From: Squalus acanthias
Lineage: Eukaryota
Assembly (NCBI GenBank): GCA_030390025.1
Contig: CM059431.1
Span: 98,892,001-98,956,000 of the forward strand
Direction: 5' to 3'
Length of the DNA stretch: 64,000 nt
Under the pieces are notes generated by a model. It did no database searches. It saw only the letters and a program-made list of their open reading frames with translations, and was not told where the DNA came from. The stretch's first letter is position 1, and each line of letters opens with the position of its first letter. The position numbers and the translations under genes were made by a program. Below are positions 13,372 to 59,130 of the stretch, one piece after another.

Positions 13372-14127
13372 CTACAAGGGGCAAGAGAAATAAGGCACAT
13401 TAGCACCGGGATTGATCTAAACAATGAGTGTGGAGAGAGAAGAGGGATTCAGCCTGATCGTTCTGGATCTGCAGGCTTCAGGCAATGCCGATACGGAGCT
13501 GTAATACTGCTTTTTGGTTAAATAGCGAATCAGTAAAACCTGCACCCTGCTATCACTAATTCAGCTCCCGCCATCTTTGCCCAACAGGGAAGGGTGGAAT
13601 AACGTGAGCTAAATGGAACACAGAATAGAGCAAAACTCAATAATTGCATGTCACAACTTTGACGGGAGATTACAAATGCTAAGAGACCAGACACAGGAGT
13701 CACTTCTTGTCACAGTAGGTGAAGGATTTAAAACAGACTCTCGTGTATCCCTTTTCACCTCTACGCTAGAGTCATTGGGAAAACGTGTTGGGGAGAGGCA
13801 TTCCTGGGGGATTGGTCTGAGTGGACGAAAAGCTGCTTTCATCTAGTCTAACTTTTGCTGAACTTGCTGAGGAGTTTATAAAAAAGACTTGCATTTATAT
13901 AGCACCTTTCACGACCACCAGACGTCCCAAAGCGCTTTACAGCCAATGAAGTACTTTTGAAGTGTAGTCATTGCTGTAATGTAGGAAACACGGCAGCCAA
14001 TTTGCACACAGAAGGCTCCCACAAACAGCAATGTGATAATGACGAGATAATCCGTGTTAGCGATGTTGATTGAGGAATAAATATTGGCCAGGACACCGGG
14101 GATAACTCCCCTGCTCTTTTAAATAGT

Positions 14128-14266
14128 CATGATGTGGAGATGCCGGCGTTGGACTGGGGTGGACAAAAATGAGAAGTCGCACAACACCAGGTTATAGTCC
14201 AACAGATTTATTTAATTTTACAAGCTTTCGGAGCAGTTCGCTCCTTCGTCAGGTAAGTTTAGCTTA
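14128..14266 (-). mobile_element. Penelope-like element end (family A) with 12-bp TSD CTTTTAAATAGT
   Basis: Direct repeats 14116-14127 and 14267-14278; contains a hammerhead core; family assigned from recall. Confidence 0.75.
14218..14256 (-). ncRNA. Minimal type I hammerhead ribozyme motif
   Basis: uuac CUGACGA a ggagc-gaacu-gcucc GAAA gc UU guaa: helix I (4 bp), intact core, helix II (5 bp), palindromic AAGCUU. Confidence 0.7.
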
Positions 14267-14590
14267 CTTTTAAATAGTGCCATGGGATCTTTTACGTCTA
14301 CCTGAAAGGGCAGACGGGGCCTCGTTTAACGTCTCATCCAAAAGACGGCACCTCCGACAGTGCAGCAGCACTGCACTGGAGTGTCAGCCTAGATTTATGT
14401 GCTCAAGTCTTTGGAGTGGTTATGCTGAATTCTCACAATATTGTAGCATTTTCTTAAAAGTATTTACAAACGTAGCTTCCAATCCTTTGCTACCAATTTT
14501 GGAGTGTTTTTTTTGAAGACATAGAAAAAAAAATAGGAGCAAGAGTAGGCCATTCGGCCCTTCGAGCCTGCTCCACAACTTTAAACTAAC

Positions 14591-14753
14591 CTCTGGGAAA
14601 TCTCTCAGTACTTCAGACATCTCATTGCCACGTTCCCCACATCCAACGTAGATGATCACATCACTGTTGGAGTACTTTGAGAGCGACTGTGAAATCACGG
14701 TCTTTCCACAACCAAAGGCACCTGGGATGGCCGTGGTTCCACCTTGCACGCAC
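14591..14753 (-). CDS. ATP6V1A: ATP6V1A exon 7 (P-loop GAFGCGKT)
   Basis: [54 protein letters not shown]; aag| and |GTTAGT; 163 nt. Confidence 0.98.
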
Positions 14754-15710
14754 CTTAAACACAAGAAAAGGACAAAGAAAAACAAGTGAATCCACTATTA
14801 ACTGACTCTTCAGTCAATGTAGGCAGAAATGTGAAAGCATTCCTTCCCACAAAATACATATTTGGCCTGCAGGTCAAGTACAGGCATTCAGGACTTCTAG
14901 ACGTCAGTATATAAAAGTTGGTGGGACAGTGTAACGTGTTGTTTAGGGTCCATTAGCTCTTCCAAGAGACTCTCTCCACACACTGCTGCACTAGACCACC
15001 ACCAGGCTATAATGCAGAGGATTGGGGGGGGGGGGGGGGGGGGGGAGAAGCCTTAAAAACAAAAAGAGATTACACCTTAAAATGGCTTGAATTACCATGC
15101 ATGTCTCCCATGTAACCAGCACTATTCCCATAATATGGGGTCCTCATTTTAACTCCCTGAAAGGCCCGATGGGACTGTGCTCCTCACAAGTGACGGTCAT
15201 TCTACAAGAGAAGAAAGTTGCTGAGGGGGCGGGGAGGAGAGAGAGAGAGAAAAGAACAAAAAAAGTGTGGGGAAGTGGGCAGCCTAATTGCAAACATCAG
15301 TTGAATGGTTATTCTACACCAGTCATCGCCTGCACCGATTCCTTATATCAGGACGCACAGCATTTGCTACGAGTGTTACAATCCATCTGGCACTGCGCCA
15401 GACAATCAGGAAATTTCATAGACTTCAAGACCTGACCTTCGGTGTCCAGTACAAAAAACAGAGTTTGCCTCTCTCTCTCGTGGAATTGCAGCCTCTGTGG
15501 CCCAGAAGCTAACTTGGCATCAGTCATATAAGAGACAAACTGGCTCCTGATCTCAGCATCATGTGGCAGCAACTTAAGGGATCACTGCATTTTATACCAT
15601 CTGTCTGATGCACGGCATGAAAAGAGGCTGCAGCTGAGGATTCTGACAAAGTCCGGGGTTGGACTTTCCAACATTTCAAACCAAAGTGCCATTGATTGAA
15701 GGTAAACTCA

Positions 15711-21365: not shown

Positions 21366-21691
21366 CTGGAAAACACATGGAAGAGAGAAACAACAAACGA
21401 GTAAATTCATCGTCAGAAGCACGGGAATTTTAACAGAACTTTCCATTTAAATCTAAATAGTCAAGGTTTCCAAATGGCAGTTCACTGCAGATAGGGAACA
21501 GAATCATTTAGTCATATTTACAATTGATTTGCAAAGTTTTAAAAGAAACACTTTTTTTCTCCCAAGAAATGGAAATGGATTACAAAAACCCAGGAGCAGA
21601 TCCTCGCCCTTGAAATAAGAGGGAGGTGAGGAATCTGATGAATATAGAGGCATTGTAGTACGATACTTCTTGGTCAAACCCTGTATGTTAA

Positions 21692-22177
21692 AAAGACTTG
21701 CATTTCTACAGCGCCTTTCACGACCACCGGACGTCTTAAAGCACTTTACAGCAAATGAAGTACTTTTGAAGTGGAGTCACTGTTGTAATGTAGGAAACGC
21801 GGCAGCCACTTTGCGCACAGCAAGCTCCCACAAACAGCAATGATAACAATCAGATAATCTGTTTTAGTGATGTTGGTTGAGGGATAAATATTGGCCAGGT
21901 CACCGGGGATAACTCCCCTGCTCTTCTTCGAAATAGTGCCATGGGAACTTTTACATCCACCTGAGAGAGCAGATGGGGCCTAGTTTTAACATCTCATCTG
22001 AAAGACGGCACCTCCAACAGTGCAGCACTCCCTCAGCACTGCACTGGAGTGTCAGCCTAGATTTTTGTGCTCAAGTCCCTGGAGTGGGATTCGAACCCAC
22101 AACCTTCTGACTCAGAGGCGAGAGTGCTACCCACTTTTATTGGGGGGGGGGGGGGAGACTTGTATTCACTGAGCCAC
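21692..22177 (-). mobile_element. tRNA-derived Deu-domain SINE (SacSINE1-like), near full length
   Basis: Minus strand: A box GTGGCTCAGTG, B box GGTTCGAATCC, Deu core GAGGTGCCGTCTTTCAGATGAGATGTTAAA, tail AAATGCAAGTCTTT. Confidence 0.85.
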
Positions 22178-46047: not shown

Positions 46048-47997
46048 TCACGACCTCAGGACGTCCCAAAGCGCTTTACAGCCAATTAAGTTCTTTTGAA
46101 GTGCAGTTACTGTTGTAATGTAGGAAACTCAGCAGCCAATTTGCACACAGCAAGCTCCCACAAATGGCAATGGAATAAATAACCAAATTTTTTTTTTTTC
46201 TTCGTTCATGGGATGTGGGCATCGCTGGCAAGGCCAACATTTATTGTCCTTGAGAAGGTGATGGTGAGCCGCCATCTTGAACCGCTGCAGTCCGTGTGGT
46301 GAATGTACTCCCACAGTAAGGGAGGGAGTTCCAGGATTTTGACCCAGCGACGATAAAGGAACGGCGATATTCTGGTTGAGGGATAAATATTGGCCAGGAC
46401 ACCAGGGACAACTCCCCTGCTCTTCTTCAAAGTAGTGCAGTGGGATTTTTTTCTCTCCACCCAAGGTGTCAGAAGGGGCCTTGGTTTAAGGTCTCATCCG
46501 AAAGATATATACATCACAATACACCTTGGTCCACCCAACTACTGGAAGACTGATCTTAAATACTTTCACCTTGAAGTGAGGTGAGAATTGCTGCCCTTGA
46601 CATCAAGGCAGCATTTGACCAAGTGTGGCATCAAGGAGCCCGAGTAAAACTGAAGTCCATGGGAATCGAGGAAAACTCTCCACTGGCTGGAATCATACCT
46701 AGCACAAAGGATTGTGGTTGTTGGAGGTCAATCATCTCAGCCCCAGGACATCGCTGCAGGAGTTCCTCAGGGCAGTGCCCTAGGCCCAACCATCTTCAGC
46801 TGCTTCATCAATGACCTTCCCGCCGTCATAAAGTCAGAAGTGGAGATGTTTGCTGATGACCGCAGTATTCAGTTCCATTCGCAACTCCTCAGATAATGAA
46901 GCAGTCCATGCCTGCATGCAGCAAGACCTGGACCACATTCAGGCTTGGGCTGATAAGTGACAGGTAACATTCTCGCCACACAATTGCCAGGCAATGACTA
47001 TCTCCAGCAAGGGAGAGTCTAACCACCGCCCCTTTACATTCAACGGCATAACCATCGCTGAATCCCCCACCATCAACATCCTGGGGGTCACTATTGACCA
47101 GAAACTTAACTGGACCAGCCACATAAATACTGTGGTTACAAGACCAGGTCAGAGGCTGGGTATTCTGCGGTGAGTGTCTCACCTTCTGACTCCCCAAAGC
47201 CTTTCCACCATCTACAAGGCACAAGTCAGGAGTGTGATGGAATATTCTCCACTTGCTTGGACGAGTGCAGCTCCAACAACACACAAGAAGCTCGACACCA
47301 TCCAGGACATCATAGCCCGCTTAATTGGCACCCCATCCACACCTTAAACATTCACTCCCTCCACCACCATACCGTGGCTGCAGTGTGTACCATCGACAAG
47401 ATCCACTGCAGCAACTCGCCAAGGCTTCTTCGACAACACCTCCCAAACCCGCGACCTCTACCACCTAGAAGGTCAAGAACAGCAGGCGCATGGGAACACC
47501 ACCACCTCCAAGTCACACACCATCCTGACTTGGAAATATATCGCCGTTCCTTCATCATCGCTGGGTCAAAATCCTGGAACTCCCTCCCTAACAGCACTGT
47601 GGGAGTACCTGCACCACACGGACTGCAGCGGTTCAAGAAGGCGGCTCGCCACCACCTTCTCGAGGGCAACTAGGGATGGGCAATAAATGTTGGCCTTGCC
47701 AGCGATGCCACATCCCAGGAACGAATAATAAAAAAAGGCAGCAATTTGAACAAGACCCTTTAGCCTGGAGACTCAACAACTTTCTTCCAAGACCTTGGAT
47801 GATGGGCCGAATGGACTCCTGTGCTGTATGATTCTATACTTCAAACAACAGAGTCTTCCTTGCACCTCCGACAGTACAGCACTCCCTCAGTATTGCACTG
47901 GAGTGTCAGCCTGGATTTTCTGGTCAGGGTTCTGGAGTGGGGCTTGAACCCACATTTTCTGATTCAGGCAAGAGTGCTACCCACTGAGCCACGGCTG
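46048..47997 (-). mobile_element. Deu-domain SINE split by nested insertions (pieces ~46048-46187, 46372-46505, 47862-47997)
   Basis: The pieces concatenate into the sequence seen at 21.7 and 54.0 kb. Confidence 0.8.
46577..47736 (+). mobile_element. 5'-truncated CR1/L2-group LINE of a second family, with A-rich tail
   Basis: ALDIKAAFDQVWHQG, GVPQGSALGPTIFSCFINDLP, MFADD; same 3' end at 33914-34272 (+) and 46188-46371 (-). Confidence 0.88.
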
Positions 47998-53029: not shown

Positions 53030-53508
53030 GTGTCAGCCATGGCTCAGTGGGTAGCACTCGCACCTCTGAGTCAGAAAGTCCAACTCCAGTGACGAGCACA
53101 AAATCCAGGCTGACACTGCAGTGCCAGTACTGAGGGAGAGCTGCATTGTCGGATGAGGTGGATGTAAAAGATTCCATGGCAATATTTCAAAGGTCGCACA
53201 ACACCAGGTTATAGTCCAACAGTTAAAACTGTTGGACTATAACCTGGTGTTGTGCGACCTCTCAATTTTGTCCACCCCAGTCCAACACCGGCATCTCCGC
53301 AATATTTCAAAGAGCAGGGCAGTTCTTGATGGCCTGTCCAGTATGTCCTCCACCAACATTGCTGTTTGTGGGAATTTGCTACGCAGAAGTAGGCTGCCGC
53401 GTTTCCAACATTACAACAGTGACTGCGCTTCAAAAATTACTTCATTGGCTGTAAGGCGCTTTGGGATGTCTTGAGATCGTGATTGTCGCTATATAAATGC
53501 AAATCTGT
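53030..53508 (+). mobile_element. Deu-domain SINE carrying a Penelope-like fold-back insertion
   Basis: Head tggctcagtgggtagcactcgcacctctgagtcagaa; tail cgctatataaatgcaa; insert 53193-53298. Confidence 0.85.
53193..53298 (+). mobile_element. Penelope-like element end (family A) with inverted 5' part and 14-bp TSD GCAATATTTCAAAG
   Basis: Direct repeats 53179-53192 and 53299-53312; reverse complement matches 14135-14205. Confidence 0.75.
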
Positions 53509-54017: not shown

Positions 54018-54400
54018 AGAACTTGCATTTATATAGAGCTTTAGGACGTCCAAAGTGCTTTACAGCCAGTGAAGTGAAGTCACTGTTGTAATGTAGGAAA
54101 CGCAGTAGCCCATGAGATACTGACCAGATACAATTTTTTTGGTTGATGTTGGTTGAGGGATAAATATTGCCCAGGGGAACTCCCCTGCTCTTCTTCGGAA
54201 TAGTGCTGTTGGATCTTTTACATCTATCCAAGAGGGCAGACAGGGCCTCGGTTTAACGTCTCATCTGACAGTGCAGCACTCCCTCAGAACTGCACTGAAA
54301 TGCCAGCCTTGATTCTGTGCTCGTGTCTCTGGAGTGGGACTTGAACCTACGACCTTCTGACTCGGCAAGAGTGCTACCCACTGAGCCACGGCTGACACCT
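54018..54400 (-). mobile_element. Deu-domain SINE
   Basis: Colinear with the 21.7 kb copy, including the tRNA-like head. Confidence 0.85.
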
Positions 54401-57999: not shown

Positions 58000-59130
58000 G
58001 AATCATAGAATGGTTACAGCACAGTAGGAGGCCATTCGACCCGTCGAGCCCGTGCCGGCTCTCTGCAAGAACACTTCAGCTAGTCCCACTCCCCTGTCCT
58101 TTCTTCGCAGCCTGCCAATATTTTTCCTTCAGGTACTGATCCAACTCCCTTTTGAAAGCCACGATTGAATCTGCATCCACCACCCTTTCAGGCAGTGCAT
58201 TCCAGATCTTAACCACTTGCTGCGTATAGTTTTTCCTCATGTCACCTTTGGTTCTTCTGCCAATCACCTTAAATCTGTTCCTTCTGGTTCTCGACCCTTC
58301 TGCCAATGGGAACAGTTTCTCTCTATCTACTCTGTCCAGACCCCTCATGATTTTGAACACCTCTATCAAATCTCCTGTCAACCTTCTCTGCTCAAAGGAG
58401 AACAACCCCAGCTTCTGCAGTCTATCCACGTAACTGAAGTCCCTCATCCCTGGAATCATTCTCGTAAATCTTTTCTGCACCCTCTCATCTTTCACATCCT
58501 TCCTAAAGTGCGGTGCCCAGAATTGGACACCATACTCCAGTTAAGGCCGAACCAGTGTTTTATAAAGGTTCATCATAATTTCCTTGCTTTTGTACTCTGT
58601 GCCTCTGTTTATGAAGCCCAGTGTACCGTATGCTTTTTTAACCGCTTTCTGTCTGTCTTTTACACCACGTCAACCGCATTGCCCTCATCAACCCTCTCTG
58701 TTACCTCATTCAATCAAGTTAGTTAAACATGATTTGCCTTTAACAAATCCGTGCTGGCTTCCTTAATTAATCCACACTTATCCAAGTGACTGTTAATTTT
58801 GTCCTGGATTATCATTTCTAAAAGCTTCCCCACCACCAAGGTTAAGCTGACTGGCCTGTAGTTGCTGGGTTTATCCTTACACCCATTTTTGAACAATGGT
58901 GTAACATTTGCAATTCTGCAGTCCTCTGGCACCACCCCGTATCCAAGGAGGATTGGAAGATTATGGCCAGTACCTCCGCAATTTCTACTTTTACTTCCCT
59001 CAGCATCTTGGGATGCATCCCATCCAGTCCTGGTGACTTATCTACTTTAAGTACAGCCAGCCTTTCTAGTACCTCCTCTTTATCAATTTTTTATCCCATC
59101 CAATATCTCAACTACCTCCTCTTTCACTAT
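58000..59130 (-). mobile_element. CR1 LINE fragment with internal deletion near 58650, similar to the 49-51.7 kb copy
   Basis: Minus-strand ORFs VPEDCRIANVTPLFK and QKRFTRMIPGMRDFSY; CR1 3' tail. Confidence 0.9.

Follow-up and report, generated by a model that had tools for sequence, protein, structure and literature searches.

Recurrent, base-precise insertion of a young Penelope-like element into a SINE and into LINE reverse transcriptase frames in Squalus acanthias

Target choice by Penelope-like elements (PLEs), and their entry into the target, are little understood. In the accessible part of their survey, Craig et al. (2021; PMC8557442) describe a Drosophila Penelope nuclease with 'moderate target preferences', a microsatellite bias in several clades, and a CX2-5CxxC linker, named for Neptune and Nematis and proposed to mediate the bias in Neptune elements. 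According to the same source, PLE-X families of spike moss, which lack the nuclease, insert specifically in 28S ribosomal DNA (rDNA). An in vitro system exists for the green anole, with an AT-rich preference: the PLE called PAc nicks and extends both strands in vitro, starts reverse transcription at two internal sites that define a 'tail', and prefers AT-rich DNA (5'-ATT-3') (Frangieh et al., 2024; PMC11167929). Here, we consider a stretch of 64,000 nucleotides of the Squalus acanthias genome (GenBank assembly GCA_030390025.1, contig CM059431.1, positions 98,892,001 to 98,956,000 of the forward strand; hereafter the window), in which two old copies of a short interspersed element (SINE) are each interrupted by a PLE. 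The two inserts probably arose independently, as 5'-truncated integrations of a young, extremely abundant and autonomous PLE that favours a motif with fixed spacing, the SINE being one of several landing pads.

The element resembles the endonuclease-bearing (EN+) PLEs (Penelope/Poseidon, Neptune, Nematis), as they appear in the available part of Craig et al. (2021; PMC8557442), in having cysteines inside the nuclease core, pseudo-long terminal repeats (pseudo-LTRs) from partial tandems, an inverted 5'-truncated copy beside the insertion, a 'tail' of 30-40 bp that only one end carries, and target duplications that vary in length; a hammerhead-like motif near the 3' end may be a further likeness. 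Its C-x4-C-x2-C linker recalls Neptune and Nematis, a likeness of motif and not of reverse transcriptase (RT) phylogeny. Unlike the EN+ PLEs of that text, it recurs at defined non-repetitive sites in other retrotransposons, with an enrichment of 100- to several-thousand-fold and a sensitivity to spacing. With PAc (Poseidon, green anole), it shares direct and inverted arms, inverted arms ~35-40 nt short, and several end points per nick. In contrast, neither a long motif nor a fixed genomic hot spot is given for PAc in the main text of Frangieh et al. (2024; PMC11167929), and the properties of the present element are deduced from genomic copies. Like R2 (28S rDNA) and the spike-moss PLE-X, as far as the available text of Craig et al. 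(2021; PMC8557442) covers them, the element integrates repeatedly at one base of a multicopy sequence and in one orientation; however, essentially all copies of those elements are in one site, whereas here ~2-3% are concerned, in several unrelated host sequences. The openly readable literature yielded no account of SINEs or long interspersed elements (LINEs) as PLE hot spots. What sets the element apart is the kind of target, namely defined non-repetitive positions in other retrotransposons, with very high enrichment and no exclusivity.

The two interrupted SINE copies and the inserted element

A first-pass annotation of the window had proposed that the same foreign sequence splits two SINE copies at the same base, each time with its own 12- or 14-bp duplication. 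Both structures are indeed present; the short form of the SINE site is the one with one AAG less.

13882 to 14420, minus strand: SINE copy 1, with a short-form site, interrupted by PLE insert 1 (halves 14420-14267 and 14127-13882)
14128 to 14266, minus strand: PLE insert 1, 139 bp, a 5'-truncated direct copy of the element's last 139 nt, containing a hammerhead-like core
14267 to 14278, minus strand: left target-site duplication of insert 1, ACTATTTAAAAG, an exact 12-nt match to 14116-14127
14116 to 14127, minus strand: right target-site duplication of insert 1, ACTATTTAAAAG, then AGCAGGGG
53030 to 53508, plus strand: SINE copy 2, with a short-form site, interrupted by PLE insert 2
53193 to 53298, plus strand: PLE insert 2, 106 bp, a fold-back
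53179 to 53192, plus strand: left target-site duplication of insert 2, GCAATATTTCAAAG, an exact 14-nt match to the right duplication
53299 to 53312, plus strand: right target-site duplication of insert 2, then AGCAGGG

Read on the minus strand, SINE copy 1 shows ...GATCCCATGGC-ACTATTTAAAAG, the 139-bp insert, ACTATTTAAAAG again and AGCAGGGGAGTT. The insert matches the 3' end of a full copy of the element (L058, described below) and, over 135 nt, is 100% identical to another genomic copy. In SINE copy 2, the order on the plus strand is ...GATTCCATG-GCAATATTTCAAAG, the 106-bp insert, GCAATATTTCAAAG and AGCAGGG; the right duplication begins with GCA, and these bases may be element sequence instead (microhomology). 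Insert 2 is made of an inverted arm, from 53193 to ~53224, and a direct arm, from ~53225 to 53298, which meet near 53223-53228; the 'tail', the ~40 nt with which the direct arm ends, has no counterpart in the inverted one. Within the window there are two occurrences of a 27-nt motif from the inserts' 3' end, compared with none in 100 shuffles, and a 30-nt inner motif occurs three times, the additional occurrence being the inverted arm of insert 2. When a full element copy was used as BLAST query against the window, no PLE piece was found beyond the two inserts.

The two inserts belong to different PLE subfamilies, which differ, close to the 3' end, in a small number of diagnostic bases: insert 1 reads ...CTTCTCATTTTTG...CAACG...CTCCACATCATG and insert 2 reads ...CCTCTCAATTTTG...CAACA... 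Because the two filled SINE copies are, in addition, mutually diverged and oppositely oriented, a local duplication is excluded for this pair. The presence of two filled SINE sites within one 64-kb window is a rare draw, the number of such windows expected in the whole genome being ~0.3 (our own arithmetic, from at least 181 filled sites). At the diagnostic bases of window positions 14168-14179, contigs of two other organisms (runs X19 and X20) carry almost solely the letters of the copy-2 type, and the runs of organism A mostly those of the copy-1 type. The copy-1 subfamily may thus reflect a lineage-specific burst, a weak indication drawn from contig word depth alone.

The host is a candidate Deu-SINE, as named in the first-pass annotation. 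A tRNA-derived head was looked for over the whole window with ARAGORN (0 genes) and Rfam (0 matches); box-A-like and box-B-like strings were seen by eye in the SINE copies. Uninterrupted copies occur in the window at 3.5, 19.5, 21.9, 46.4 and 54.2 kb and read ...GAAGAAGAGCAGG, with the variant ...AAAGAAGAGCAGAG at 3.5 kb. Two of them are listed here.

21691 to 22087, minus strand: SINE copy without insert, its site CACTATTTCGAAGAAGAGCAGGGG of the common long form and empty
54045 to 54337, minus strand: uninterrupted SINE copy with the long-form site CACTATTCCGAAGAAGAGCAGGGG, empty

It had been suggested that such copies display the empty site. They are uninterrupted as described, but all five carry three bases (AAG) that both filled copies lack. 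The only two short-form sites of the window are the two filled ones, and all its long-form sites are empty. One SINE copy (46048-46505, minus strand) is split at a different position, by an insert of ~200 bp (46173-46372) that ends in a poly(A) run and resembles another SINE family (...GGACAATAAATGTTGGCCTTGCCAGCGATGCCCACATCCCATGAACGAAGAAAAAAA); the PLE target site of this host copy is of the long form and empty.

The Penelope assignment, made in the first-pass annotation, was borne out by longer genomic copies, where an RT domain, GIY-YIG motifs and a pseudo-LTR layout are all found. The inserted element is a true PLE, autonomous, with one open reading frame (ORF) encoding an RT and, at its C-terminus, a GIY-YIG nuclease, and the window inserts are 5'-truncated copies of this very young element, with no separate small element involved. 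The autonomous RT/GIY-YIG partner that the annotation had called for exists as the full copy L058 (C9:131049000-131054500), which has the typical PLE layout: a terminal piece in inverted orientation comes first, then an incomplete upstream unit (pseudo-LTR), then a full unit. Its ORF of 916 amino acids (aa) matches RVT_1 (E 1.2e-8, 35.4 bits for a cutoff of 29.6). The C-terminus, read directly, shows C-x4-C-x2-C ... VVYLIRC ... YIGET ... NEHR. The linker, C-HGKL-C-KT-C, lies ~35 residues ahead of VVYLIRC and fits the CX2-5CxxC motif as defined in the accessible part of Craig et al. (2021; PMC8557442). A protein search returned 298 relatives, of which the closest named ones are from sharks (80-94% identity) and remoter ones from echinoderms, ticks and bivalves (31-46% identity); the precomputed GIY-YIG domain PF01541 is present on many of them, including many invertebrate ones (31-40% identity). 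A sequence search of the PDB with the nuclease end gave 0 matches. L058, with its intact-looking 916-aa frame, is surrounded by a 20-bp satellite (CCTACATTAACATGGTATAG and variants) that forms a long array, where its duplication and junction overlap is ACC/CCTACATT.

The element is very young and extremely abundant. In the assembly of 3.71 Gb, an exact 27-mer of the insert 3' end occurs 42,788 times, and the total of PLE 3' ends is ~47,000 when taken as twice the forward-strand count (at least 42,788 by the exact 27-mer). A first look with the nuclease domain as query gave 57,779 candidates; among them, 150 were scored and are 98-99% identical to the query, many with open frames of 921 aa. The PLE copies compared are 97-100% identical. 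Fold-backs were seen in seven of nine PLE copies sampled; in one of the fold-back copies, L023, the arms measure ~650-865 bp, ~650 bp being visible within the locus.

A manual reading of the 3' region gives helix I, CUGANGA, helix II, GAAA and a palindromic AGCU, with one additional A after the core. Over 15 variants of this region, 97.8% of the cells are paired, and compensatory changes occur in two of the nine pairs. The presence of a hammerhead-like motif near the PLE 3' end is suggestive only. In the PLE copies L049, L032, L034, L044 and L076, CCGACGA replaces CUGANGA and helix II is altered (GGAGT...); if the motif is a ribozyme, this group would have an altered core base.

Independence of the insertions

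The two window insertions are independent and later than the divergence of their SINE copies, as had been proposed from the window. This can be seen from a set of 36 filled SINE loci, the two of the window and 34 from elsewhere in the genome. Perfect duplications of 11-14 nt flank the insert in 21 of the 36, all ending at the same base just before AGCAGG, and they carry locus-specific variants (TTTCGAAG, TTTTGAAG, TTTCAAAG, TTTTAAAG, TTTGAAAG, TTCGAAG, AATATTTCAAAG). These 21 loci have 21 different insert lengths, from 106 to 1,442 bp, and varied 5' junctions, some being direct truncations and others inverted arms of differing reach. The same picture is obtained at LINE-A, a LINE site described below: of 20 loci, 14 have a perfect 13-nt duplication, no two of these 14 agree in insert length, and one locus has a variant of its own on both sides. 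The duplication finder works by exact match and misses duplications with a mismatch or a junction overlap; the remaining loci (15 of 36 for the SINE, 6 of 20 for the LINE) include 5' junctions outside the locus, one-mismatch duplications, and trimmed or deleted targets (L033, L035, L045, L063, L071, L072).

Among 22 filled copies, the mean mutual identity of the SINE flanks is 85.4% (range 71-96%), and that between filled and empty copies is 84.2%. A maximum-likelihood tree has the shape of a star, without a clade of filled copies; the five empty copies give five label changes, for a shuffled mean of 4.8, a comparison of low power. From this tree, we dropped L060 (a duplicate of L059), the copies without a match spanning from at most 30 to at least 110 of the SINE right half, and those without AGCAG(G/A) near the site.

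An alternative, named in the first-pass annotation as an outcome that would refute its proposal, would be that one SINE received the insert once, and that the unit of SINE and insert was then amplified. Such an ancestral composite could account for the 3-bp-shorter site of both filled window copies, for the 3' junction string that locus C1:249858044 shares with window copy 2, and for the few filled sites that are segmental duplicates. It is nevertheless extremely unlikely, because the duplications agree within a locus and differ between loci, because all 21 perfectly duplicated loci are unlike in insert length and 5' junctions, because the SINE flanks are ~15% diverged while the compared PLE copies are 97-100% identical, and because the tree, whose power is low, shows no filled clade. 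The involvement of two PLE subfamilies also stands against it. Two other origins were considered and rejected: template-switch chimeras would not leave the insert flanked by duplicated SINE sequence, and the differing structures of the inserts do not fit with gene conversion from one SINE copy to another.

Some loci do derive from duplication. At C17:48.79-54.66 Mb, seven filled SINE sites with an identical junction apparently reflect a segmental or tandem duplication. L059 and L060 (C1:253.92 and 254.20 Mb) go back to a duplication, yet their PLE inserts measure 277 and 187 bp today, so that one copy must have changed after the duplication. An empty allele or ortholog of the first locus (window 13400-15000) was looked for in the contigs of four public runs: none bridges the locus, the contigs ending at the SINE border (13883-13905), and the many apparent 'skips' in this interval derive from other SINE copies.

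Occupancy, orientation and spacing at the hot spots

In the whole assembly, a PLE end is followed within 4-30 nt by AGAGCAGGG, the motif to the right of the SINE site, in 668 cases, and by its reverse complement CCCTGCTCT in 4, a strand-specific excess of ~167-fold. The four antisense cases correspond to the chance level, because every genomic AGAGCAGGG reads CCCTGCTCT on the opposite strand. The SINE site itself, defined as CTATT, 3-9 nt and AGAGCAGGG, occurs 71,993 times, 3,705 of these being of the short form, and its exact-match occupancy depends strongly on the form.

Short SINE form (one AAG less): 137 of 3,705 sites filled (3.7%)
Long (common) SINE form: 44 of 68,288 sites filled (0.064%), seven of the 44 being one segmental duplication

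A change of 3 bp in the spacer thus goes with a 57-fold difference in use, and the 3-bp-shorter minority variant is the only good SINE target. As the mean oriented genomic position receives ~6e-6 PLE hits (~47,000 ends in 3.71 Gb), the enrichment is several thousand-fold at the short form and about hundred-fold at the long form (our own arithmetic). With at least 181 filled sites by pattern match and a ratio of 668 sense to 4 antisense junctions, the preferred SINE position anticipated from the two window copies holds genome-wide.

The SINE is not the only host. Half of the 668 motif junctions, that is 334, belong to a site inside the RT ORF of a LINE (LINE-A), which reads GCCGTGG/CATAGAATAYAAG/AGCAGGGGGGTTATGC (slashes bound the duplicated stretch, here CATAGAATAYAAG) and shares AAG/AGCAGGGG with the SINE; 334 of 20,016 such sites are filled (1.7%) and 19,682 are empty. 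When the short SINE site, CCCATGG/CACTATTTCGAAG/AGCAGGGGAGTTATCC, is aligned with LINE-A at both nicks, 25 of 38 positions agree. The common pattern is GG/CA, eight bases, AAG/AGCAGGGG, one base and GTTAT, from which the long SINE form is off by 3 bp. A second LINE (LINE-B) is used, also in its RT ORF, at GGGC/TTCATAAATAGA(G)/GCATAGAGTACAAAAGC, 15 nt upstream of the place homologous to the LINE-A site. There, 383 junctions are found by a 13-mer criterion, and 243 of 5,964 strict 27-mer sites are filled (4.1%); in each of four loci looked at, the duplication measures 12 nt, and the insert length is different every time. At the place in LINE-B that is homologous to the LINE-A site, the sequence is AGCAAGGAAG, not AGCAGGGGGG, and this place is unused in 100 of the 100 matches listed. 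At one end of C1 (0-5.3 Mb), five LINE-B sites are filled, the next one being only at 54 Mb; LINE-B sites are ~2.5 times as dense there as in the following 40 Mb, which makes the region unusual in its repeats. Finally, a few insertions lie in an L2-like tail at ...ATGGGGAAAG/AGCAGGGGAGTGGG. The window contains empty examples of two of these targets.

58560 to 58610, minus strand: empty copy of the LINE-B hot-spot site, GGGC/TTCATAAACAGAG/GCACAGAGTACAAAAGC, with the motif at 58598
45803 and 28438, minus strand: two empty L2-like tail sites, ...GGGCTATGGGGAAAGAGCAGGGGAGTGGG, a site that is filled elsewhere in the genome

On the right of the duplication, AG/(A)GCA..G.G is common to the SINE, LINE and L2-like hot spots, and GCAGRGG is found 10-28 nt past a PLE end in 968 cases, against 44 for its reverse complement. 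The preferred target is thus an AT-rich stretch of 12-13 bp ending in AG, followed by (A)GCAGGGG or GCAKAGAG, and its use is base-precise, orientation-specific and dependent on spacing. Since motif and spacing also fit the sites in the LINE ORFs, the SINE is one of several motif-defined landing pads.

It had been imagined that the element evolved to recognise the conserved core of the SINE as its landing pad. The number of filled SINE sites (at least 181) and their single orientation would agree with such dedicated targeting, as would the resemblance of the SINE stretch CATGGCACTAT to the element's own unit junction CATGACCACTAT. However, only 0.064% of the sites of the common SINE form are filled, compared with 1.7% and 4.1% for the two LINE ORF sites, the SINE sites hold ~0.4-0.6% of all PLE copies, and insertions recur in the L2-like tail, whose right-hand motif is the same. 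In view of an equal or higher occupancy in two LINE RT ORF positions, the idea of the SINE as a dedicated landing pad was abandoned, and we hold it to be quite unlikely.

One may also ask if the element lands broadly and survives chiefly inside neutral repeats, which would create apparent hot spots. All the hot spots are in interspersed repeats, as a bias of retention would predict. Such a bias is, however, very unlikely to explain base-precise positions, a strand asymmetry of 167:1, a 57-fold difference between two SINE variants of equal neutrality, or the lack of use, in the 100 matches mentioned above, of the LINE-B counterpart of the LINE-A site.

Target recognition and its possible mechanism

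Integration at a motif with fixed spacing would most likely proceed as follows. The element protein, with its GIY-YIG module and cysteine-rich linker, would read the site, and the nuclease/RT complex would nick both strands ~12-13 bp apart, leading to the target duplication. The 3'-OH ends of both nicks would then prime reverse transcription. The bottom-strand product would give the direct arm, ending in ...CATCTCC(R)CATCATG(ACC), and the top-strand product, starting ~35-40 nt further inside the RNA, would give the inverted arm. With two starts of complementary DNA (cDNA), some copies would be simple and others fold-back, depending on how far each of the two cDNAs ran. The anatomy of the junctions is compatible with this scheme. 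Direct arms end at ...CTCC(R)C, CATCA, CATCAT, CATCATG, CATCATGACC or CATCATGACCAC, the longer ends being read-through into the next unit, as judged from the tandem junction of L058. Inverted arms begin at the reverse complement of ...GCGAC(C/T)TCTCA(A/T)TTTT and are without the last ~35-40 nt of the direct arm (CCACCCC...CATCATG). This agrees with the 'tail' of PAc and with its two internal starts of reverse transcription.

In another model, the sites would be selected by microhomology, without recognition by a protein: the nicked target ends would anneal to the element RNA, with CACTA or CAT pairing at the 3' junction and AAG versus GAGAAG at the inverted arm. Junction overlaps of 2-5 nt are indeed common, GACCACTA, present in many SINE junctions, is element read-through sequence, and the right junction of L070 reads CACTA where the left SINE copy reads TACTA. 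Yet at LINE-B a single fixed nick is joined to at least five element end points, so that the annealing register is not decisive. Moreover, overlaps of 2-5 nt are too short for an enrichment of 100- to several-thousand-fold, and the 57-fold effect of a 3-bp spacer away from the junction would be left without explanation. Microhomology is therefore unlikely to be the main determinant.

Several observations weigh against integration by a motif-favouring autonomous PLE, or limit its reach. The hot-spot sites together hold ~2-3% of the ~47,000 PLE 3' ends, most insertions being at sites with no defined motif, and the 668 and 383 motif-site junctions, compared with at least 42,788 3' ends, show that the element has no strict, R2-like site specificity. 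None of the nine best PLE copies by BLAST is in the SINE, and their duplications of 6-12 nt are at varied sites. In a sample of 3' flanks from C1:0-5.3 Mb (~76 places and ~71 junctions, by manual count), none is in the SINE site, ~22 are in recurrently used repeat positions and one is in the LINE-A site; this region is not representative, and no genome-wide fraction is drawn from it. The left half-site is poorly conserved among the hot spots. The occupancies come from exact-match patterns that leave out diverged sites, and some filled sites are segmental duplicates (the seven on C17, and L059/L060). With regard to the element, the GIY-YIG domain scores 22.3 bits (L023) and 21.5 bits (L058) in Pfam, just below the cutoff of 22.6. 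For the hammerhead, Rfam gave no match in the window (gathering threshold) or in L023 and L001 (E up to 10), apart from one irrelevant weak match. The positions and order of the nicks are a proposal made from genomic junctions alone.

Going one step further, it is tempting to imagine that the protein reads a long (~35 bp), asymmetric and spacing-sensitive site and more than AT-rich DNA, that the best such sites are found in the RT ORFs of LINEs resident in the genome and in the core of a SINE that mimics one of them, and that the element habitually homes into retrotransposons. We put this forward tentatively, as a possible but doubtful extension. The GIY-YIG homing endonucleases I-TevI and I-BmoI offer a plausible model for the reading of ~35 bp with a spacing requirement. 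As portrayed in the accessible part of the literature, they also tether a small cleavage module to a DNA-binding part, have long recognition sequences and nick sequentially; unlike the present element, they make double-strand breaks for DNA-based homing, without reverse transcription. If the extension is true, retrotransposon targets would be safe havens, which may themselves be disabled by the PLE insertion, and the genome, with its tens of thousands of near-identical copies, would by nature map at high resolution where an RNA-templated inserter that selects its sites and nicks both strands has integrated.

For the annotation of the present genome, the findings account for the repeated splitting of SINE and LINE copies at the same base. 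Beyond this, the very young copies, which number in the tens of thousands and have junctions precise to the base, provide hot spots, a natural spacer experiment and a junction anatomy that fits priming from both strands at two RNA start sites. Target recognition by a PLE nuclease and its zinc-finger linker thereby becomes directly testable, which bears on RNA-templated insertion enzymes.
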